Shown one piece after another: positions 1,647-47,045 of a DNA stretch of 47,047 bases. This DNA is from a phage, in sequence record OZ335955.1. The stretch is one strand, 5' to 3'. Position 1 is the first letter of the stretch; every line of letters starts with the position of its first letter. The notes beneath the pieces were generated by a model. The model had not been told where the DNA came from. It ran no database searches and was given only the letters and a program-made list of their open reading frames with translations. The translations under genes and the position numbers were made by a program.

Positions 1647-1677
1647 TTTTGTTCCCCAACCTCGTTTCAATAAGGTC

Positions 1678-1706
1678 ATTCTACGCCACCATTGAATCTA
1701 CGTCAA
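1678..1706 (-). promoter_or_regulatory. sigma70-like promoter TTGACG-N17-TAGAAT (conserved family)
   Basis: reverse strand reads TTGACGTAGATTCAATGGTGGCGTAGAAT; drives the 1455..1646 gene. Confidence 0.5.
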
Positions 1707-1744: not shown

Positions 1745-1773
1745 TTGACCAATCTACACCGAGCGCATAGTAT
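1745..1773 (+). promoter_or_regulatory. sigma70-like promoter TTGACC-N17-TAGTAT
   Basis: TTGACCaatctacaccgagcgcaTAGTAT followed by atctacatca element; upstream of the 1804 ORF. Confidence 0.5.
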
Positions 1774-1803
1774 ATCTACATCAGGCTTAACGGAAATACT
1801 ATT

Positions 1804-2829: not shown

Positions 2830-4254
<1,425 letters not shown>

Positions 4255-4348
4255 TATAATCATAAATGCAGCTAGTCCGGCCAGACGAAAAGGTGAACGT
4301 AGACACCCTGCTGCATCCTCAATCTACGAACCTACTACGGGGTTACTC

Positions 4349-4990
4349 ATGGCAAAAAGACTCACCACGGAAGAATTCATTTCTCGCGCCAGACAAAAAC
4401 ATGGCGACAAGTGCATTTATCATAAATGTGAATACGTCAACGCAAAAACAAAAATCGTCATAACATGCAAAAAGCACGGCGATTTCACGCAATCACCAAG
4501 TGACCACCTGCAAGGAAAGGGGTGCAAGAGGTGTGCAGATATCTCAGGGTGGGATAAGAGAAAGATAACAACCTCCGAATTTGTCTTGAAGGCAAACGCG
4601 ATACACTCCAACAAGTACACATATGAAAAAGCCAAGTATAAGCAATGTCATTTAAAGGTGTGCATAACATGCAGAAGGCATGGTGATTTTTATCAATCAC
4701 CAAGTAGTCATTTAAGGGGCTTTGGTTGTCCATCGTGCAAGTTTGAATTAAATGCAGAAAGATGCAGAATGACAAAATCAGAGTTCATATCAAGGTCAAA
4801 TGAACTGCATGGTGACTCATATGACTACTCAATGGTGGAGTATAAAAACAATAACACCAAAGTTGCTATATTGTGTAAGGAGCACGGATTGTTCATGATG
4901 TCACCTGGCAATCATCTTGCTGGCACGCAAAGTACGGATTTGATTATAAAAGGGAAGGTTTTGTATATTTCCTCATGGGTGATGGTGTGA
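4349..4990 (+). CDS. homing-endonuclease-like protein, N-terminal part with three tandem ~60-aa Cys/His repeat modules
   Basis: ORF-track 4190..4990, start refined to ATG 4349 after portal stop; three repeats of pattern EFI-R--HGD-Y-Y-----N---KV-I-C--HG-F---P--HL-G-GC; ends GKVLYISSW just before a frame change. Confidence 0.45.
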   Translation: MAKRLTTEEFISRARQKHGDKCIYHKCEYVNAKTKIVITCKKHGDFTQSPSDHLQGKGCKRCADISGWDKRKITTSEFVLKANAIHSNKYTYEKAKYKQCHLKVCITCRRHGDFYQSPSSHLRGFGCPSCKFELNAERCRMTKSEFISRSNELHGDSYDYSMVEYKNNNTKVAILCKEHGLFMMSPGNHLAGTQSTDLIIKGKVLYISSWVMV

Positions 4991-5232: not shown

Positions 5233-6163
5233 CGCAAGGCTACCTCAACCGCGCATATCACAGAGCATTACTGATCCGTTGGGCGCTGCAACCCGTCTGT
5301 CAAAGATGGATAAGGTAATAACGCGCAAATATAAGCAACTCAGGACTCGTGCGCTTGAGTTGTTTCGCACCATTCCGCATAGTCAGGTCAACGCAGAATC
5401 AAGCGAACTGTATTTCTATGACTTCAGTAGTGCGCGGGCTGCCACCTTCATGGATGAGTTGCAGGCGCTGATTGACGAGATTCTGCTTGAAGGTGATGAT
5501 TTCGGTCACGGCAGAATGTGGGCTAACGTGTTTATTGGTGATGCGTATCAGACTGGCACGCAGAAGGCTAACTCAGAACTGTCAAGCCTGTCTCCGGTTT
5601 ATACCGAACAAAGGCCGATTGCCGCGATACTCTACAGCGAGCCTTACCTTAATCGCCTGCAACTGGCATACACATCCGGATACTCAGACTGGCGCGGATT
5701 GAGTGATTATTCCCGTCAGCAACTGGCATCTGTCATTATGGAAGGCATTGCCCGGGGTGCTAATCCTCGTGATGTTGAATCTGATATCGTTAAGCGTGTC
5801 GATGTGTCTCACAGCTACGCGAAACAGATAGCGCAGACTGAAATCACCGGAACGCTACGACAGGCTCACAGGAGGGAAGTCATTGAGGCGCGCGAGGAAT
5901 TGGGTATTGAGACTGTGATGCTGTGGCAATCGGCATTAATGCGCACAACGCGCCAGACTCACGCGGCGAGACACGGACGGTTTTATACACCAGAAGAGAT
6001 TGATACGTTCTATAGCGAAGTTGCTAATCGCAGGAATTGTCACTGCGCTCAAACCCCGGCGTTATTAATGGATGGAAAACCAGTCATTCTTGAGTCATCA
6101 CAGGAAAGGCTTGATAAGCAACGCGAGGCGTGGCAATCAGTCAACAAAAAGCCCTCTAAGTGA
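5213..6163 (+). CDS. head morphogenesis protein (Mu F-like / SPP1 gp7 family)
   Basis: QTEITGT...W...RTTRQTHAARHGRFY motif block typical of the family; follows portal; true start may be downstream (about 5306). Confidence 0.75.
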   Translation: MKILRFNARLPQPRISQSITDPLGAATRLSKMDKVITRKYKQLRTRALELFRTIPHSQVNAESSELYFYDFSSARAATFMDELQALIDEILLEGDDFGHGRMWANVFIGDAYQTGTQKANSELSSLSPVYTEQRPIAAILYSEPYLNRLQLAYTSGYSDWRGLSDYSRQQLASVIMEGIARGANPRDVESDIVKRVDVSHSYAKQIAQTEITGTLRQAHRREVIEAREELGIETVMLWQSALMRTTRQTHAARHGRFYTPEEIDTFYSEVANRRNCHCAQTPALLMDGKPVILESSQERLDKQREAWQSVNKKPSK

Positions 6164-6176
6164 GGGCTTGGTTTTA
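6149..6176 (+). terminator. rho-independent terminator
   Basis: aagccctc-taagt-gagggctt hairpin overlapping the stop codon, followed by ggtttt. Confidence 0.55.
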
Positions 6177-7898: not shown

Positions 7899-7930
7899 CT
7901 TTTATTCCTCACCGTTTGATTGATGTAGAT

Positions 7931-7959
7931 ACTATACGCCACCGCTCAATCTACGTCAA
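7931..7959 (-). promoter_or_regulatory. sigma70-like promoter TTGACG-N17-TATAGT (conserved family)
   Basis: reverse strand reads TTGACGTAGATTGAGCGGTGGCGTATAGT followed by ATCTACATCA; divergent from an extended -10 (TGaTAGAAT, 7968..7976) on the plus strand. Confidence 0.55.
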
Positions 7960-8002
7960 CACCATTGTGATAGAATTAATCATTATTTGAACAGGAGGCA
8001 TA

Positions 8003-8281
8003 ATGAAACTATCGCAACGCGGCATGGAGACGCTTGGAATCACCGATGCCGTGGATATATCGCCTTACATCACCACTGACACAACGCAGAATCAGTTCGA
8101 CGCGCTGACAAGCCTTGCCACCGACATCGGCATTGACGTGTTCCGTAAATCAACACTTCTGAAGAAACACAACCTGCGCTGCTTCTCATGTGCTGTTGCG
8201 CATTTCATCGTGTGGGGTGAGAAGACTGACGACAAAGCTAAGCGCAAAACTGAAAAAGAGGTTTACTGGTATGGCTATTAG
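8003..8281 (+). CDS. lysozyme-like protein, C-terminal domain only (probable remnant)
   Basis: TQNQFDALTSLATDIGIDVFRKSTLLKKHNL...F..W matches the C-terminal half of P22 gp19 / T4 e-type lysozymes; N-terminal catalytic E/D/T region absent; strong RBS AGGAGG. Confidence 0.5.
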   Translation: MKLSQRGMETLGITDAVDISPYITTDTTQNQFDALTSLATDIGIDVFRKSTLLKKHNLRCFSCAVAHFIVWGEKTDDKAKRKTEKEVYWYGY

Positions 8282-9581: not shown

Positions 9582-9606
9582 AAGCCCCGTAATGGGGCTT
9601 GTGTTT
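9582..9606. terminator. rho-independent terminator (bidirectional)
   Basis: aagcccc-gtaat-ggggctt hairpin flanked by A-run upstream and gtgttt downstream. Confidence 0.55.
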
Positions 9607-10309: not shown

Positions 10310-10798
10310 TTACTTTAATGCTCCGTGATTTTTATGGAAACAATATTTTTCCTCAGCTGCTTTTCTGCATTCTGCAGCCATTGACAAGTTTGAGAATCTG
10401 CCAAGCGCAATCTGCTTTCCGTTCACGGCAATCTTTGCATACCATTTCTTACTCTTGTTATCCCAACTAACTCCGACAACATTACTCGTGTTATCAGATC
10501 GCATAGAAAGATTCTTAGCGTTCTGCTTTCTGCTTACCAATCTGAGATTCTCAATCCTATTATCATCACGAATGTGGTTTATATGATCAATCTCCATCCC
10601 CTCTGGTATCTCACCATTGTGCATTTCCCAAATTATTCTATGCATCAGTCGCACTTTTCCAAAGCAATGAACCTGCATGTACCCATTACCTGCCATGCTT
10701 CCTGCCAGCCTCCCTATTTTCATGTTTCTGTTTGTTTTTATCTTCCAATATAGCAACCCATCACGGTATTCGAACACATCATTCCAATCCATCATCAC
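10310..10798 (-). CDS. HNH homing endonuclease (HNH + AP2-like domain)
   Basis: EIDHINHIRDDNRIENLRLVSRKQN HNH motif followed by VVGVSWDNKSKKWYAKI AP2-like region. Confidence 0.85.
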   Translation of the reverse strand: MMMDWNDVFEYRDGLLYWKIKTNRNMKIGRLAGSMAGNGYMQVHCFGKVRLMHRIIWEMHNGEIPEGMEIDHINHIRDDNRIENLRLVSRKQNAKNLSMRSDNTSNVVGVSWDNKSKKWYAKIAVNGKQIALGRFSNLSMAAECRKAAEEKYCFHKNHGALK

Positions 10799-10994: not shown

Positions 10995-11093
10995 ATTTAC
11001 TACTCCTTCTCGAAAAACATCTTGACGTTTCTACATCACTTAGTCAATACTTATTGACGTAGATTGTACCACAACGGAAAAGGTGATGTGGAA

Positions 11094-11764: not shown

Positions 11765-12009
11765 GCGCACCACATATGCCGATGATGAATTATGAGGGAT
11801 TGCTGGATTGCCCATTCTGCGGGAGCGGCGAGACGACAATGGATAGAGAGGATGGGTTATCGCAAGTTGTTTGCTTGGGGTGCGGCATTGCAACTGATTT
11901 ATATCAACAGAAATCAATCATAATTAAAAAATGGAATACCAGAAACGGACACCTCTACACCGCAGACGACTTCAATCAGGCAGCAGAGGAGCGCGATCAT
12001 GGACTATAA
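11761..12009 (+). CDS. Lar-family restriction-alleviation-like zinc-ribbon protein
   Basis: CPFCGSG...VVCLGCG...KKWNTR matches the CPFCG / C-x2-CG / WN-R pattern of Lar family proteins. Confidence 0.55.
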   Translation: MSAPHMPMMNYEGLLDCPFCGSGETTMDREDGLSQVVCLGCGIATDLYQQKSIIIKKWNTRNGHLYTADDFNQAAEERDHGL

Positions 12010-12487
12010 ATCACAAATCATGCGCGTGATTATCAATCATCCAGGCGCAACGCGTGCATATATTGAAAAGCATTGCGGAGGAAAGCATTCAAGCACCACA
12101 ACGCATCGTTTGCATGAGATGCTCGCACTTGGCTTTATTAGCCGCGAGAAGTCAGTTATTCGTGGTGGTAAGTGGCAGTATAAATATTTCATCTCTGATG
12201 ATGCGGCTGGCATTGATGATGCGATTAAGTGCCATTTGCTTGATAACACTGGCGCAGAGGTGAAAGAAATCAGCGCAGCCACTGGCATTGATTACCGGAT
12301 CGTAAAAAGCCGCATCCGCATTATGTTTCATAACGGTGATGTGACGCGAAGCTATGACCACCATAAGAAGCTGTGGCGTTATTCATGGAAGGAGAAGGAA
12401 GTCAATGTAAGCAATCTATTTAATTCACTTCTTCGCAACGCAAGGGGGCATCATGGGGAAAGCCAAACGCAAGAAGCAGGAGTATGA
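11999..12487 (+). CDS. putative winged-helix DNA-binding protein
   Basis: 162 aa; two segments resembling winged HTH modules. Confidence 0.35.
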   Translation: MDYKSQIMRVIINHPGATRAYIEKHCGGKHSSTTTHRLHEMLALGFISREKSVIRGGKWQYKYFISDDAAGIDDAIKCHLLDNTGAEVKEISAATGIDYRIVKSRIRIMFHNGDVTRSYDHHKKLWRYSWKEKEVNVSNLFNSLLRNARGHHGESQTQEAGV

Positions 12488-13671: not shown

Positions 13672-15551
<1,880 letters not shown>

Positions 15552-16864: not shown

Positions 16865-16870
16865 AAAGAA

Positions 16871-16896
16871 AAGCCCCATGAAGGGGCTTTGGTTTA
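16871..16896. terminator. rho-independent terminator (bidirectional)
   Basis: aagcccc-atgaa-ggggctt hairpin then tggttt; between convergent genes. Confidence 0.55.
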
Positions 16897-17079: not shown

Positions 17080-17615
17080 TCAATCCTCCTCGGCATAACA
17101 ACAATCTTTGCAGTCTCGCCAGATGGAGCGCTAAGACAGCAAGCTGCGGCATTTGTGTTTCCATTCAGTTCAAACTTAACGCTACTGAATTTAGGGTTAA
17201 ACAGCTTCGCCACTTTCTCAATATCAACAAGGTATCCAGCATTGAAGCCAATTTCCTCTGTTGGCAAGGACTGTTTCGGTATCACTCGATCAATATCAGG
17301 GAATCGACCATCAATCTCTTCGCAGATACCAGCACCAACCATAGCGCCAGCTTCATCATGATACGTTGCAATTTTCGACTTTGTATCAATGATGGCGTAC
17401 TCATAGCGTTTTGTTGGAGATTTGGTGACCTTGATAATCACATTTTCTGTCAGCTTATTGTCATGACTGCCACCAATGAATGCGCGATGACCGTCAGTTG
17501 ATGCGATGCGGCCATCAGGCATGAAGCAGATGCCGTTCAGGTAGTAGCGCACATCATTGCGCGCCTGAAATATTAATGCTGACTCAAGTAATAATTTGCT
17601 GATTTTTAGCTTCAT
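17076..17615 (-). CDS. truncated beta sliding clamp (DnaN domain II-III) homologue
   Basis: ORF-track 17076..17618 starts at GTG; ATG at 17615 with AAGGTG RBS; NDVRYYLNG, TDGHRAF, DGRFPDIDRVIPK, EIGFNAGYLVD and IVVMPRRI align with E. coli DnaN residues ~125-366. Confidence 0.65.
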   Translation of the reverse strand: MKLKISKLLLESALIFQARNDVRYYLNGICFMPDGRIASTDGHRAFIGGSHDNKLTENVIIKVTKSPTKRYEYAIIDTKSKIATYHDEAGAMVGAGICEEIDGRFPDIDRVIPKQSLPTEEIGFNAGYLVDIEKVAKLFNPKFSSVKFELNGNTNAAACCLSAPSGETAKIVVMPRRID

Positions 17616-17788
17616 CACTTCACCTTAATCATATGTTGTTTTGCAACCTTCAGGCATTCCTCAAAAATGCCGCCCTTCTTTGCGCTCTGATTGCGCTTGT
17701 AATACTGGATTGCCGCATCAACTGCCATCTGGTCGATGTCTGGCAGCTTGGCGCGAAGTTGTTTTTCTATGAATGATTCTGGAGACAT
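17615..17788 (-). CDS. small hypothetical protein (57 aa)
   Basis: GAGGAT RBS; not in ORF track. Confidence 0.3.
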   Translation of the reverse strand: MSPESFIEKQLRAKLPDIDQMAVDAAIQYYKRNQSAKKGGIFEECLKVAKQHMIKVK

Positions 17789-17973
17789 TTAATATCCTCA
17801 TCATCGAAGTGGCGTTCATTCCATCTTTCTGCCGCATCTTCGGCACCGTACTCGCTTCTCTTTTCAGTGCCACAATAACCGCATTCAACAACAAACCTGT
17901 CCTGCCAGTTATTATCAATGAATGCCGATGGTGTATTTCCGCAAAACGGGCATATTTTTAATTTAATCATCAC
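17767..17973 (-). CDS. Lar-family restriction-alleviation-like zinc-ribbon protein
   Basis: KICPFCGNTP...FVVECGYCG...ERWNERH; same pattern as the 11761..12009 product. Confidence 0.55.
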   Translation of the reverse strand: MMIKLKICPFCGNTPSAFIDNNWQDRFVVECGYCGTEKRSEYGAEDAAERWNERHFDDEDIKCLQNHS

Positions 17974-18779
17974 ATCTTCTCCAGAATTGCCATAACCTCG
18001 TGAATGTCAGCAACAGGAATCTGGATAAACTCCTCATCCTCTGCCACCACATGACCAGCAGGAAGAATCACATGGTCTGCTGGCTTCAATAACTCAATCA
18101 GACGGTCTACTGGCTTAATCTTTTTCGACTTCAGCACTTTTGCCGTGACTTTGTCTTTACCCTGCGCCTTCGCTTCTTCGACTGCCTCGTCGATAACTTT
18201 AATCGCATCTTCACCATGCTCACGCGTTACTGCTACGGCGTTTGCATAGCTGATTTGCCCGGCATTGATTCGCGCTTTAACTTCCGCTGGCACATCACCC
18301 AACGACAGGTGCATCTGCACATCAGATACTGAGCGGCCTACCTTCCTGGCGATCTCTTCGTTAGTCCAGCCAAAGCCTTTTAGTCGCGTGTAAGCCTTTG
18401 CGCGCTCAAACGGGTCAAGCTGCTTCCCCTGACTGGATGACACCATGAATGCAATTTTATCCGCCTCATCGCCAGTGAAATCCTTGCACTCAATACGAAC
18501 TATTGGTGCGCCGCGCTCAATGGCACGCAATGCGCCGAGATAGCGATGCTGACCATCAAGAATGCGGATTCCCTTCTCGTCAGGAATAACTGTTAATGCC
18601 GGTAGTGGCTGACCAGACTCCCAGCACTGCGCGAAATATTCCACATGTTGCTCATCTGCTTCACGGATGTTGTATCCCGGTTCCAGATAGATTTGCTCCA
18701 CTGGCACGAGATAGGTTTTGTTAACGGCAATGCCGTTGCGGGTTTCTTTGTCTGAATAGATTTTGCTGAGTGTTTTCAT
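17970..18779 (-). CDS. ParB-like nuclease domain protein
   Basis: IRILDGQHRYLGALRA motif typical of the ParB/Srx N-terminal domain. Confidence 0.6.
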   Translation of the reverse strand: MKTLSKIYSDKETRNGIAVNKTYLVPVEQIYLEPGYNIREADEQHVEYFAQCWESGQPLPALTVIPDEKGIRILDGQHRYLGALRAIERGAPIVRIECKDFTGDEADKIAFMVSSSQGKQLDPFERAKAYTRLKGFGWTNEEIARKVGRSVSDVQMHLSLGDVPAEVKARINAGQISYANAVAVTREHGEDAIKVIDEAVEEAKAQGKDKVTAKVLKSKKIKPVDRLIELLKPADHVILPAGHVVAEDEEFIQIPVADIHEVMAILEKM

Positions 18780-19406: not shown

Positions 19407-19447
19407 TTTTATCACCTCTAACATTTATTGTTGTTTCTACATCACTA

Positions 19448-27862: not shown

Positions 27863-28380
27863 TGGCTATCATCAAATACCCTGACTGGCTGCCACTGGCA
27901 CAGCGCGCCAGTAAAAACCTGACACAGCAAACCCCGTTCCGCAGTGACCAGCCTGCGGTTGGAACGCCGATTTTCCAGAAGTTGACAACTGACATTGCGG
28001 CGACATGGAGCCTGACGTGGAAGTTTACGCTAGCAGAAGAACGCGCATTTATCCAGTGGTTGCGTAGTTCGAACTACCTCAACAAATGCAACAACTGGTT
28101 CACCATGATGATTGACCTCGGCGGCAGCGGATTGCAGGAGCAGACTCTGCACTTTACCGATTATCCTGTGCAGACCAGTATTGATGGCGGCGTGGTCACA
28201 TGGACTGGCAATGTTATCGCCAAGAAACTCAATAACACAATGGATGAGTTTGATGATGTTCTGGTTGAGCTGGATTACAGATGGTATAACTGGCTGGATG
28301 AAGTCGTTAATCGCGAACTCCCGCAGGCCGATTCCGCGTGGGGTAGTAAGTACATCACAACAATAAAATTCAACGTCTGA
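27862..28380 (+). CDS. minor tail protein (gpM-like position)
   Basis: 172-aa ORF directly after TMP with ATGA-type overlap. Confidence 0.45.
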   Translation: MAIIKYPDWLPLAQRASKNLTQQTPFRSDQPAVGTPIFQKLTTDIAATWSLTWKFTLAEERAFIQWLRSSNYLNKCNNWFTMMIDLGGSGLQEQTLHFTDYPVQTSIDGGVVTWTGNVIAKKLNNTMDEFDDVLVELDYRWYNWLDEVVNRELPQADSAWGSKYITTIKFNV

Positions 28381-28392
28381 CGAGAGGTATAG

Positions 28393-31712
<3,320 letters not shown>

Positions 31713-31760
31713 TCCTCGTGATACAATATACATCAAATTCACAAAGGAGCATTTATAATA

Positions 31761-34376: not shown

Positions 34377-34403
34377 AACCCCGCTTCGGCGGGGTTAGTT
34401 TTA
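34377..34403. terminator. rho-independent terminator (bidirectional)
   Basis: aaccccgc-ttcg-gcggggtt hairpin followed by agtttt. Confidence 0.6.
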
Positions 34404-34424: not shown

Positions 34425-35024
34425 CTAAGGTTTATACGCCCAAAAAAATCCATTCCTGCATTTAACGCCATTTTTTATTTGATACTCAATTGAATAACCA
34501 CAGTCACGCGCCGCCGAATTATATGATGGATATTCACAAATAAGATTGTAATCAGAATCAAACTTCATGACTTTCTTGCACCTTCTTCCGCTCTTGTTTA
34601 CTCCAGACAATATATCCTGCTTTTGATGATTTCTATTCATCCTCCACGTCCCAAGCCTTATGTTGTCAAAACTATAACCAATAAAATCATTAATTCTGTC
34701 AACGCTTGGCTTTAAATCACAAAGATAACCAGATGAAACCCATTCATCATAAAGCTTTTTGAATCCATTGCTGTATAGCCATGATGACAATTCAGATTTT
34801 GAGTAAGGCATTTCACCATGCCCTCTGAGTTTATTGTGTCTTTTCTGCGTCTTGTATATAACCCTGATTACACCTTTTTCTGTTTTGTCATAAGCATCAC
34901 CAACATTCTTTAGATTTTCTCTAACATCACTCTTTGTGCAATCCTTGCACTTCATCCCTGCGCCTTTATAGAAAGAACCTTCATCCTTTTCAATTCCGCA
35001 TCTTTTACATAATTTCATATACAA
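34425..35024 (-). CDS. homing-endonuclease-like protein with degenerate HNH motif
   Basis: N-terminal Cys4 zinc ribbon, central DRIN...DNIRLGTWRMNRNH resembling a modified HNH motif, C-terminal KVMKFDSDYNLICEYPSYNSAARD...GFFWAY DNA-binding-like region. Confidence 0.4.
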   Translation of the reverse strand: MYMKLCKRCGIEKDEGSFYKGAGMKCKDCTKSDVRENLKNVGDAYDKTEKGVIRVIYKTQKRHNKLRGHGEMPYSKSELSSWLYSNGFKKLYDEWVSSGYLCDLKPSVDRINDFIGYSFDNIRLGTWRMNRNHQKQDILSGVNKSGRRCKKVMKFDSDYNLICEYPSYNSAARDCGYSIEYQIKNGVKCRNGFFWAYKP

Positions 35025-35086
35025 TCCCCCTTCTGTTTTTGTTAATTATATTCAGAAAGGGGCATTGCGTCAAACTAAATCACCAT

Positions 35087-35578
35087 TTAGAAGGGTATCG
35101 AATCGTCGAAGTCCATCGGCGGCTCGTTTCCTCCTTGTTGGCTCTGTTGTTTTGGTGATTGCTGTTGTTGTTGCCGTTGCGGTTGCTGTCCTGATTGCTG
35201 GCGTGGTTGTTGCTGATCAGAATCATCACGTCTACCACCAAGCATCTGCATAACACCACCCATCTGCGGAATGACAATCTCAGTGGTGTATTTGTCCACG
35301 CCGTTGCTGTCAGTCCACTTACGAGTGCGTAGCTGGCCTTCGATATAAACCTGAGAACCTTTGCGAAGGTATTCGCCTGCAATCTCAGCAAGTTTCCCGA
35401 AGATGACCACGCGATGCCACTCGGTCTGTTCTTTCTTTTCTCCTGTCTGCTTATCTTTCCACTGCTCAGATGTTGCAACAGAAAGGTTGACAATTGCAGA
35501 ACCTGATGCTGAATACTTAACTTCAGGATCGTTACCGAGAGTGCCGACAATAATTACTTTATTTACGCCGCGTGCCAT
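35087..35578 (-). CDS. ssb: single-stranded DNA-binding protein
   Basis: near-colinear with E. coli SSB: OB fold, Gln/Pro-rich linker and C-terminal [10 protein letters not shown] tail. Confidence 0.9.
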
Positions 35579-37575: not shown

Positions 37576-37613
37576 TTGTCAACCTCACTAATCATCACAA
37601 AAATGAATCTACA

Positions 37614-38090
37614 TCAATCCACATCAAAAGGCAAGCCAAAATAGAAAAGTGTGGCTTTTTTTAGTTCATCAAGACCGTAAGCGATGGCTGCATAATGACC
37701 AAGCCTGCACATCTCTGTTAGAACTGCTGATTGATCCTTGCTCACTCTGCTCTTACTTTTGTCACGGCGCTTTGCCTCAATCATTCCGCAGCAGTGGTTC
37801 GCACCCGGAGTCATTATTACGTTATCGCCTATCCCAGCCTTAACACCCATCTTCTGGCGCTTCAGCACAAACTGCACCCTGCTTGATGTGCCAGTTTCGT
37901 TTGGTACATGAAACCACAGAACATCAGGGAAGCGGTGTTGCATCCATGTGCCGTAACCCATCTGGTCAGCCTCCTCTTTCGGGCATTCTCCGCGATAACC
38001 GCCATCAAATACCCATATACCGCTATCAAGCTGCTTCACTCTGTTCTCCTTAAAATTCTTTTCTGTGGATGATATCGCGCCCTTTATCAT
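37614..38090 (-). CDS. VRR-NUC domain nuclease
   Basis: MIEAKRRDKSKSRVSKDQSAVLTEMCRLGHYAAIAYG matches the VRR-NUC core. Confidence 0.55.
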   Translation of the reverse strand: MIKGAISSTEKNFKENRVKQLDSGIWVFDGGYRGECPKEEADQMGYGTWMQHRFPDVLWFHVPNETGTSSRVQFVLKRQKMGVKAGIGDNVIMTPGANHCCGMIEAKRRDKSKSRVSKDQSAVLTEMCRLGHYAAIAYGLDELKKATLFYFGLPFDVD

Positions 38091-40238: not shown

Positions 40239-40268
40239 TTGATGTTTCTACGTCAGTTAGCTTATACT
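40239..40268 (+). promoter_or_regulatory. sigma70-like promoter TTGATG-N18-TATACT
   Basis: contains tctacgtca element in spacer and caatctacacc just downstream of -10. Confidence 0.5.
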
Positions 40269-40298
40269 CAATCTACACCAACAATCAAGGGTCAATTT

Positions 40299-43783: not shown

Positions 43784-44220
43784 CAGGTATCTTATTCTTA
43801 TCCATTCCCCATGTCAACCAAGCCGCAACATGCGCAAATCACTTATCCGCTAAATGTAATTCGGGATAAAACGGGATAAGAACGGGGAAAGTTTGGGATA
43901 AGTAATTTTAGTACTAAGTATATGTATTTATTACTATTACTATTTATATATACTGCTATTTATCCTATTTATACCATTTTTCTCACCATGTTTTTGTCAC
44001 CAAAAAAATCCATTCCAAAAATTATATTTCTCTCTATTAGATTCGGGATAAGTGTAAATGGGATAAAACGACGCAACATCATGATTTATTACGAGTTTTT
44101 TGGGGTAAATGAAAAAATCAGCGGGATAAAACGGATAAATTCACCTGTTAAAAATCAATTACTTACAAAATTAATAACTGTTGGTGATAACTAACAGTGT
44201 GGTTTGTTTTAGTCATTGTA
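43784..44220. repeat. iteron-rich AT-rich non-coding region (putative replication origin)
   Basis: at least seven copies of GGGATAA(A/G) in both orientations flanking a ~120-bp AT-rich island (43900..44040). Confidence 0.5.
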
Positions 44221-44249
44221 TTGACGTAGAATCACAACTGATGTAGATT
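44221..44249 (+). promoter_or_regulatory. sigma70-like promoter TTGACG-N17-TAGATT (conserved family)
   Basis: TTGACGTAGAATCACAACTGATGTAGATT upstream of 44280 gene. Confidence 0.55.
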
Positions 44250-44279
44250 GAACTCATCGAAACAAGCGAGGGTGAAGAG

Positions 44280-44645: not shown

Positions 44646-44828
44646 ATGGCAAAGACTATCTATCGTCGCGAGAAGCTGGAACAGGAACTTGGACGCGTTG
44701 GCGCGCAGAACTTCATGAGCAAGCAGGCACGCAATGCAATGGAATCTATCCGCGTAAATCGCGTTGTGCGCGTGTTTAATGGTGAAGGTAAGCGCAGAGT
44801 AATGGATGAGCTTATTATCGTGTTCTGA
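44646..44828 (+). CDS. hypothetical protein
   Basis: 60-aa ORF. Confidence 0.4.
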   Translation: MAKTIYRREKLEQELGRVGAQNFMSKQARNAMESIRVNRVVRVFNGEGKRRVMDELIIVF

Positions 44829-46442: not shown

Positions 46443-46526
46443 CTGATTTATAATAATTAATGCGGCTAGGGGGCACCCGAAAAGCGACTCATCACCGCCT
46501 GCCGCATTCACTTCAATGATGCCCTG

Positions 46527-47045
46527 ATGAGGAATCTATATATGCTTACGCAAGCAGAATTAAAACACATCCTTGATTACAATCCTGACACCGGAATTTT
46601 CACATGGAAAAACCCACACAAGCAGGGAAGGGCTAAACCCGGGAAGCCAGCAGGAACAATAAAATTATGCGGTACCGTTGGTAGCAAACGGCCGTATCAC
46701 TATATTCATTTTGGAAGAAAGTGGTATAGATCGCATAGGCTGGCTTGGCTTTACATGACTGGTAGTTGGCCTGAAAAAGAAATAGACCACATAAACAACA
46801 ATACGCTTGATAATCGTTTCGTTAATCTGCGAGAGGCTGACCATCAACAAAATGGTTACAACAAAAAGCTACAGGCAAACAACACGTCAGGGGTTAAGGG
46901 TGTGTATTGGGATAAATCAAAATGCAAGTGGATGGCAAGATTAAATATAAATGGCAGGATGGTTAATCTTGGCAGGTTCGCCAACATTGAAGATGCAGTC
47001 AAAAAGATAATGGAAGAAAGAGAGAAACATCACGGGGAGTTTTAA
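46527..47045 (+). CDS. HNH homing endonuclease (HNH + AP2-like domain)
   Basis: EIDHINNNTLDNRFVNLREADHQQN motif and GVKGVYWDKSKCKWMARL AP2-like region; between putative terS and terL. Confidence 0.85.
   Translation: MRNLYMLTQAELKHILDYNPDTGIFTWKNPHKQGRAKPGKPAGTIKLCGTVGSKRPYHYIHFGRKWYRSHRLAWLYMTGSWPEKEIDHINNNTLDNRFVNLREADHQQNGYNKKLQANNTSGVKGVYWDKSKCKWMARLNINGRMVNLGRFANIEDAVKKIMEEREKHHGEF

Follow-up and report, generated by a model that had tools for sequence, protein, structure and literature searches.

Nearly all predicted early promoters of the phage analysed here are built from one sequence of 11-13 bp, which recurs in both orientations across the window (the whole 47,047-bp stretch of DNA). 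We hold with moderate confidence that this motif is the core of the host sigma-70 promoters of the clade, and that it very probably serves also as a dispersed, asymmetric operator. The promoter part, a genome-wide sigma-70-type family as put forward in the original prediction, is well supported, with motif sites at the top of generic -35/-10 scans. The operator part we infer as the best available account of the conservation of the motif as a whole, and a phage-specific regulator, likewise suggested earlier, may read it. The motif family is not described in the literature searched and appears as a variant of phage promoter families and dispersed asymmetric operators.

The window represents one complete genome, circularly permuted, from a lytic siphovirus in the Skatevirus / Vi II-E1 / IME207 / KFS-SE2 group. 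Its gene order is collinear with that of Salmonella phage Skate, and many Salmonella and E. coli phages are ~88-90% identical to it across 70-77% of its length. No integrase or CI-type repressor was seen in the window. The structural, lysis and tail genes run rightward, and leftward clusters of small or replication genes break in, with eight divergent junctions of 75-496 bp each. Phages of the Skatevirus type are often isolated and used in the biocontrol of Salmonella and E. coli, and the BASEL reference collection now includes them. The literature searched contains no paper on promoters or transcription of the Skate group, nothing on gene-expression timing in Skatevirus-like phages, and no occurrence of the motif string in any phage context. 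Existing annotations of these phages give generic TTGACA/TATAAT matches only.

Seventeen aligned sites yield the consensus tTGAYGTAGAWWSA, in which T1, G2, G5, T6, G8 and A9 are invariant and A7 is present in 16 of 17. Information reaches positions 12-13, and the motif is non-palindromic: it has no dyad symmetry and only 6 of its 14 positions are self-complementary. The original prediction had described two separate elements; since ATCTACATCA is the reverse complement of TGATGTAGAT, these are one motif in two orientations. The nine intergenic regions said to carry them are present as described, and so are three 29-mers, TTGACGTAGATTCAATGGTGGCGTAGAAT (1706..1678, minus strand), TTGACGTAGATTGAGCGGTGGCGTATAGT (7959..7931, minus strand) and TTGACGTAGAATCACAACTGATGTAGATT (44221..44249, plus strand).

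The exact string TTGACGTAGATT occurs four times in the genome. With up to two mismatches it is found 15 times against 3.8 expected, a count reached by 0 of 100 shuffles, and ATCTACATCA with up to one mismatch is found 21 times against 3.7 expected. The degenerate form TGAYGTAGAWT, again with up to one mismatch, gives 21 matches, and 18 of these lie in non-coding DNA, which makes up 7.7% of the genome (binomial p = 9e-18). The intergenic enrichment that the original prediction calls for is thereby borne out. This form is present in all eight divergent gaps, in none of the four convergent gaps and in one of the ten co-directional gaps; the single co-directional case lies upstream of the tailspike gene and is a further member of the family. 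Altogether 19 copies in the genome are promoter-associated. Leftward-pointing copies (13 of 17) face the non-structural clusters, and rightward-pointing ones either precede rightward small-gene operons (P3R, P9R) or, at P2, sit antisense after the leftward -10. Copies stand 10, 17, 22, 25, 27 and 31 bp apart, in both orientations, with no consistent inverted pairing; this variable spacing and orientation fits independent binding to an asymmetric site.

Site by site, the motif supplies promoter hexamers in two registers, its 5' half, TTGAYG, as a -35 and its 3' half, TAGAWT, as a -10 (Table 1). P1L and P9R each consist of two sense copies, 17 bp apart, that together give a whole predicted promoter. 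The motif is the -35 at P2L and P4L, where TATAGT is the -10, and it is the -10 at P5L and P6L, where a separate TTGACA is the -35; at P7L it is again the -10, paired with the weaker TTGCCT. P1L, P2L, P4L, P5L and P6L have 10 of 12 -35/-10 matches with 17-bp spacers and stand at the top of the genome scans, and P9R has the same -35/N17/-10 layout. In generic sigma-70 scans, shuffled sequences give at least as many promoter-like matches overall as the genome does. From the predicted starts it is 16-62 nt to start codons that have ribosome-binding sites ahead of them. The design is unusual in that one 12-mer gives either promoter hexamer and also covers start sites. The resulting map of ~17 predicted promoters is precise enough for testing.

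Table 1 Motif copies and predicted promoters and terminators of the window
Feature	Position	Strand or direction	Remarks
Motif copy TTGACGTAGATTCA	1693..1706	-	TTGACG is the -35 of P1L (1706..1678)
Motif copy GTGGCGTAGAATGA	1676..1689	-	17 bp downstream of the TTGACGTAGATTCA copy; TAGAAT is the P1L -10
P1R	1745..1773	+	TTGACC-N17-TAGTAT; weak antisense copy 1749-1762 in spacer; copy 1771-1784 directly past -10
Motif copy CTGATGTAGATATA	1771..1784	-	Antisense to P1R; ~-6 to +5 of P1R
Motif copy TTGACGTAGATTGA	7946..7959	-	-35 of P2L (7959..7931, TTGACG-N17-TATAGT); also -35..-24 of P2R
Motif copy TTGATGTAGATACT	7920..7933	+	Antisense to P2L, directly past its -10 (~-6 to +5)
P2L -10 TATAGT	7931-7936	Leftward
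P2R extended -10 TGTGATAGAAT	7966..7976	+	Lysis cassette, ATG at 8003; no -35 match
Motif copy TTGACGTAGATTGT	11054..11067	+	Gap 10995-11093; sense to rightward small-gene operon, just past P3R -10 (P3R 11022..11051)
Motif copy GTGATGTAGAAACG	11026..11039	-	Antisense in P3R spacer; spacer or leader of P3L (P3L hexamers ambiguous)
Motif copy TTGACGTAGATTGA	19463..19476	-	-35 of P4L (19476..19448, TTGACG-N17-TATAGT); operon with ParB-like gene
Motif copy GTGATGTAGAAACA	19432..19445	-	Sense, 3 nt past P4L -10 (~-3 to +8)
P4R extended -10 TATGCTAAAAT	19483..19493	+	Head-tail genes
Motif copy GTGGTGTAGATTTA	22974..22987	-	TAGATT is the -10 of P5L (23004..22976, TTGACA-N17-TAGATT), upstream of two tRNA genes
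P5R extended -10 TGTGATATAAT	23009..23019	+	Major tail gene; back to back with P5L
Motif copy GTGATGTAGATTCA	24697..24710	-	TAGATT is the -10 of P6L (24727..24699, TTGACA-N17-TAGATT)
P6R extended -10 GATGATATAAT	24737..24747	+	Tail assembly and tape-measure operon; back to back with P6L
Tailspike promoter	31718..31736	+	Extended -10 GTGATACAAT, directly followed by degenerate antisense copy ATATACATCAA
Two sense copies TTGATGTGGATTGA, TTGATGTAGATTCA, 10 bp apart	37604..37627	-	Second copy is the -10 of internal P7L (37634..37606, TTGCCT-N17-TAGATT)
Motif copy TTGGTGTAGATTGA	40268..40281	-	P8L spacer (40288..40261); antisense, 2 nt past P8R -10
Motif copy CTGACGTAGAAACA	40243..40256	-	~+1 of P8L; antisense in P8R spacer
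P8R	40239..40268	+	TTGATG-N18-TATACT; primase gene
P9R	44221..44251	+	Two sense copies 17 bp apart: -35 TTGACG, -10 TAGATT; small-gene operon from 44280
Shared terminators (examples)	1431-1450, 6149-6169, 9582-9600, 16870-16890, 23780-23799

The remaining copies take other places. Antisense copies directly follow the -10 in P2L, P1R, P8R and the tailspike promoter; the sequence aATCTACAYCA, which had been thought to follow the -10 usually, does so in about five promoters only (these four and possibly P3L), not in most. Antisense copies also lie just downstream of the -35 in P1R, P3R and P8R, and P4L and P8L have sense copies, of subtype TGAYGTAGAAAC, 3-5 nt past the -10. Motif positions therefore vary over the -35, spacer, -10 and +1, with orientation both ways, and the copies past the -10 point in the direction of transcription in P4L but against it in P2L, P1R and P8R. 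Several copies, among them those at 1771, 7920, 19432 and 40243, have no partner hexamer at 16-18 bp in either direction. A separate shared leader, TCATCGAAAC(G/A)AG, follows three promoters, P1L, P6L and P9R.

Many of the sites are overlapping divergent pairs, in line with the back-to-back promoters proposed originally, and the overlapping pairs sit in divergent gaps of 75-125 bp. Five rightward elements (those of P2R, P4R, P5R, P6R and the tailspike promoter) are of the extended -10 type, with TG one base upstream of the hexamer, and none of the five has a -35 match at 16-18 bp. They precede lysis, head-tail, major tail, tail assembly and tailspike genes, and the leftward members of the pairs lead into small non-structural genes. 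The extended -10 TGTGATAGAAT is kept in nearly all of 33 relatives. At P2 and P4, an identical 12 bp forms positions -35..-24 of both the leftward and the rightward promoter, and the middle of the shared motif is 20 bp away from each of the two -10 elements. By this geometry the two polymerase footprints are mutually exclusive, so that only one direction could be used at a time. At P5 and P6, the leftward -35 sits 9-14 bp from the rightward -10, and at P8 the -10 hexamers of the two strands overlap each other. The best reading is that the leftward promoters are early and -35-dependent and the rightward ones late and of the extended -10 type, with the labels early and late taken from gene content only.

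To compare relatives, we collected ~170 related loci from IMG/VR around three anchor genes, together with three annotated genomes. Selection was measured on promoters from more than 100 related loci, anchored on TTGACG-N17-TAnnnT only, which avoids circularity. The six bases after the -35 (TAGATT, -29..-24) have a minor-allele fraction of 0.012-0.014, as against 0.10-0.27 in the remainder of the spacer and 0.27-0.39 in the flanks, and are thus ~10-20 times less variable than the remaining spacer. No contact of sigma-70 is known at -29..-24. Conservation beyond the sigma-70 hexamers, on which the idea of a regulator site had been based, therefore holds and fits such a site. The Salmonella, Klebsiella and SB28 lineages all retain the sense copy past the P4L -10, and GTAGAAAC does not vary among them. 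The P8 region comes in three unrelated alleles with different neighbours, and in all three an antisense copy lies 0-2 nt past the rightward -10. The antisense copy past the P2L -10 is no better conserved among close relatives than the adjacent spacer (0.098 vs 0.101), which counts against the operator reading.

The motif extends well beyond the closest relatives. Klebsiella phage VLCpiS13f has 19 matches against 3.4 expected, located at equivalent promoters, and a weight matrix trained on this phage alone recovers the copies of the window. Motif and layout persist in Klebsiella phages in which core proteins are 50-80% identical and ParB is 80% identical. Motif density is ~4 per 10 kb in ~75 related loci, a level seen in the close group, the Klebsiella-phage group and a group with 70% identical ParB; in a distant group with 45% identical ParB it equals background, and k-mer counts there show no comparable alternative motif. 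Among 2.9 million viral contigs, the paired motif is found in 88 IMG/VR stretches, almost all of this clade. Bacterial genomes (596 Gb) carry it at chance level only, one match being a phage contig in a Pantoea assembly.

The motif is conserved at positions that sigma-70 does not contact, and some copies have no hexamer role, so each copy is probably recognised independently, as double-stranded DNA, by a sequence-specific protein, most likely one that acts as a monomer or uses two domains. Host sigma-70 polymerase would use the motif halves as the -35 or -10 of early leftward promoters. All copies lie, at varying places, between ~-35 and +12 of a promoter, which suits a repressor better than an activator; the binder would mainly repress the early leftward promoters, which would free the overlapping extended -10 promoters.

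A rival account, which we consider rather doubtful but the most serious of those weighed, takes the motif as a promoter building block only, spread by duplication and recombination and serving no dedicated regulator, with its conservation due to polymerase contacts or to dual use by overlapping promoters. Each half is indeed a near-consensus hexamer and a 17-bp tandem gives perfect promoters; moreover, family scans of ~50 proteins found no universal DNA-binding protein, and two conserved small proteins gave no DNA-binding fold. This account is set against the low variability of TAGATT outside known sigma-70 contacts, the copies that lack a partner hexamer in either direction, and the same 11-mer placed in reverse over start sites in unrelated promoter alleles. 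In addition, gene conversion cannot homogenise repeats this short.

Building on the operator reading, it is tempting to speculate that a phage-encoded regulator with no recognisable DNA-binding signature occupies the shared -35 region and flips ~eight tightly overlapping promoter pairs from early leftward, -35-dependent transcription to late rightward transcription of the extended -10 type. A single repeated bidirectional switch would then constitute the whole temporal programme of a lytic siphovirus that relies on host polymerase only. We regard this bolder version as unlikely. As a single cis element, the motif is a site whose mutation should perturb the whole expression programme.

If a binding factor exists, a motif probe would offer a direct route to a new phage regulator, and several candidates were considered. 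The first is a 162-aa winged-helix protein (11999-12487, PHROG 'MarR family regulator') that would bind the asymmetric site as a two-domain monomer, a proposal to which we give a small chance. It matches PHROG 1687 at 2e-58, and its residues 6-68 weakly match the winged helices of MarR, Lrs14 and Sta1; its gene lies within a motif-controlled operon, is present in 158 phage records of the clade and is kept in Salmonella phage SB28. Monomeric two-domain repressors acting on asymmetric, dispersed sites have a precedent (PMC9283540). However, phage Akira keeps the motif with this gene cut to a 23-aa remnant, and a search of 10 kb on each side of ParB in the group with 70% identical ParB did not find the gene. 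In Klebsiella phages, where the motif is identical, the protein has just 36-38% identity and its putative N-terminal recognition helix is poorly conserved; no internal repeat was detected in it. No solved homologue of it was found.

Two further small proteins were set aside. DUF7540 (44646-44828) looks by eye like a ribbon-helix-helix protein, but its model (pLDDT 95) is beta-alpha-beta-beta with no fold match. The 57-aa protein (17615-17788) models as a plain three-helix bundle with no fold match; all motif-bearing lineages examined, SB28 and the 70% group among them, have it. Pfam, PHROG and NCBIfam scans of ~50 proteins revealed no other DNA-binding candidates. Nothing supports a host factor as reader either. 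The FNR, DnaA, EvgA and IHF consensus sequences partly resemble the motif by eye, but the invariant GTAGA falls in their non-specific positions, and the paired motif stays at chance level in bacterial chromosomes.

The conserved blocks might instead be mainly recombination linkers, with regulation secondary, an explanation we think quite improbable as the main one. In 33 relatives, conservation of the P2 block reaches through the 5' UTR, while any of at least six unrelated genes may come first on the leftward side; only ~14 of 31 close loci have the first gene behind P4L, and the P8 alleles differ in their neighbours. A common family of bidirectional terminators closes the cassettes, at convergent junctions and not beside the promoters. 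On the other hand, the 12-bp core alone is too short for homologous exchange, selection acts on individual motif positions and not on a long block, and any conserved regulatory blocks would give cassette boundaries at promoters. The linker role is compatible with the promoter-operator reading and does not exclude it: as a side effect, the conserved promoter blocks appear to mark the edges at which leftward gene cassettes swap between relatives, and would account for where accessory cassettes exchange in the Skate group. In the PeSL promoter/terminator cassettes of T4-type phages, a stem-loop lies directly upstream of an early promoter (PMC2839356, PMC4122927). There too, conserved early promoters flank variable small genes and mark exchange points. 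PeSL cassettes differ in being composite, with the stem-loop directly upstream of the promoter, whereas here the terminators are at the far convergent end of the cassette.

A ParB/KorB-like protein (17970-18779, minus strand) could be the motif binder and a global regulator, as KorB is on plasmid RK2, which we judge very unlikely. It contains ParB-HTH and KorB domains and is 97-99% conserved in the close group, where genomes are ~90% identical; its gene sits in the operon of P4L, which has the most conserved motif pair, and the motif is common to lineages with ParB at 70% identity or above and absent from the 45% group. Against it, SB28, in which this gene is deleted to a 44-aa remnant, keeps full motif density (21 matches vs 3 expected) and has new tandem copies upstream of an inserted homing endonuclease. 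The ParB gene is also at another genomic position in the 70% group, and parS and KorB operators are palindromes, which the motif is not. The KorB operator OB of the IncP plasmid RK2 is a 13-bp palindrome. RK2 and the present phage each have about a dozen copies of one site across promoters, in a small replicon encoding a KorB/ParB-type protein, but the phage motif is asymmetric and persists in a relative without the ParB-like gene. The loss of the ParB-like gene in SB28 and of the winged-helix gene in Akira weakens both candidates. Mycobacteriophage D29 lacks its repressor. As a deletion derivative of a temperate parent, D29 has stoperator sites that stay well conserved (PMC5712189), so such losses weaken rather than eliminate the candidates.

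That the motif acts in RNA as a common 5' leader of transcripts is scarcely credible: copies do lie at ~-6 to +12 in roughly eight promoters, and P1L, P6L and P9R have their separate common leader, but start-site copies in both orientations would give transcripts differing, mutually complementary sequences, a copy serving as -35 or -10 lies outside the transcript of its own promoter, no Rfam family matches at the motif regions, and the shared initial transcribed sequence of the original prediction falls with it.

Other known systems resemble parts of the proposed promoter-operator arrangement. In phi29, the early/late switch operates at the divergent A2c/A2b-A3 promoters under protein p4, which has inverted-repeat sites. 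Like the present phage, phi29 has close-packed divergent early and late promoters that share regulator sites, and its late promoter is without a good -35. It differs in using one region and inverted repeats, whereas here ~8 junctions carry an asymmetric motif and a p4-like protein was not found. T4 middle promoters combine a MotA box at -30 with a sigma-70 -10, and AsiA inhibits -35-dependent promoters. A phage-specific asymmetric box in the -35 region and the use of host polymerase are common to T4 and the present phage, and extended -10 promoters escape -35-directed inhibition. The MotA box, however, takes the place of the -35 and keeps to one position and orientation, whereas here the box holds a consensus -35 and is found at many positions. 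Family searches of ~50 proteins gave no MotA or AsiA homologue.

A further likeness is to cluster A mycobacteriophages (L5, D29), in which stoperator/operator sites are bound by a monomeric two-domain repressor (PMC9283540, PMC5712189). Stoperators, like the present motif, are asymmetric, ~13 bp long, present in ~20-30 copies, almost all intergenic and variably spaced; one site overlaps an early promoter, and in the derivative D29 the sites outlast loss of the repressor. The two systems differ in several respects. Stoperators belong to temperate phages and confer immunity by blocking elongation, whereas the present phage is lytic. They lie between genes in a single orientation relative to transcription; here, the sites are in promoter cores, are themselves -35/-10 hexamers and occur in both orientations within one promoter, and no cognate protein is known.

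The promoter blocks could serve engineering as compact, strong and possibly switchable promoters. Three features had been passed over in the original prediction, namely that the motif is a fused -35/-10 unit, the degenerate family member at 31718-31736, and the weak copy at 1749-1762.

The leftward and rightward gene cassettes meet at convergent junctions, and at these junctions lie five hairpins of one near-identical family, with flanking T runs on both strands. As judged from their sequence, these hairpins are the predicted bidirectional terminators that close the cassettes. A similar hairpin with another stem is also present (see table).

At the other end of the predicted transcripts, the leftward motif promoters P1L and P6L and the rightward motif promoter P9R have in common a leader, (G/C)A(A/C)NT(C/T)AT(C/T)GAAAC(G/A)AG, located just 3' of the -10 element, and it occurs in relatives too. 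Sense motif copies placed after a -10 likewise end in GAAAC. Thus, GAAAC may be common to many early transcripts near their 5' ends.

Two good predicted sigma-70 promoters of the replication module lack the motif. The first is preceded by an SSB-family gene (35087-35578) and followed by a 199-aa ORF for which the three relatives examined have no homologue. The second, located 5' of the primase/helicase operon, carries no more than a degenerate motif copy after its -10 element.

About 500 bp between this operon and P9R are non-coding. Six exact GGGATAA repeats (43863, 43873, 43895, 44045, 44060 and 44123) together with degenerate copies are found within 43850-44140, and the same stretch contains a very AT-rich block (43905-44010). 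By its repeats and composition, 43850-44140 looks like an iteron-type replication origin. A 90-aa ORF at 43922-44194 matches no family and is probably spurious.

The ParB/KorB-like protein (17970-18779, minus strand) is 97-99% identical among relatives, whereas their genomes are only ~90% identical. In Salmonella phage SB28, its gene is cleanly deleted (SB28 14409-14707) and the RusA-like gene is lost along with it. The adjoining 57-aa gene is kept in SB28, as it is in all lineages examined.

The insertion sites of several HNH or homing endonuclease genes differ from one relative to another, and one such gene in SB28 has its own tandem motif pair upstream. An HNH endonuclease gene and a 147-aa gene, likely encoding the small terminase, flank a match to the Rfam family int-alpA (46459-46522, plus strand; 42.6 bits against a gathering score of 35.8).

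Scaffold 3 (20 kb) of a Pantoea eucrina assembly is a Skatevirus-like phage contig, whose proteins are 92-100% identical to those of the window. Its presence there probably reflects contamination or a carried phage.

Coordinates of predicted features (window positions unless SB28 is named)
Feature	Position	Strand	Detail
Terminator hairpin	1431-1450	both	AAGCCCYC...GRGGGCTT
Terminator hairpin	6149-6169	both	AAGCCCYC...GRGGGCTT
Terminator hairpin	9582-9600	both	AAGCCCYC...GRGGGCTT
Terminator hairpin	16870-16890	both	AAGCCCYC...GRGGGCTT
Terminator hairpin	23780-23799	both	AAGCCCYC...GRGGGCTT
Similar hairpin	34377-34396		AACCCCGC...GCGGGGTT
Leader	1655-1677		P1L
Leader	24675-24698		P6L
Leader	44250-44272		P9R
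Promoter	35045-35073	-	TTGACG-N17-TATAAT; upstream of ORF 34425-35024
Promoter	43789-43817	-	TTGACA-N17-TAAGAT
HNH/homing endonuclease	4190-4990
HNH/homing endonuclease	10310-10798
HNH/homing endonuclease	46527-47045
HNH/homing endonuclease	28316-29986		SB28
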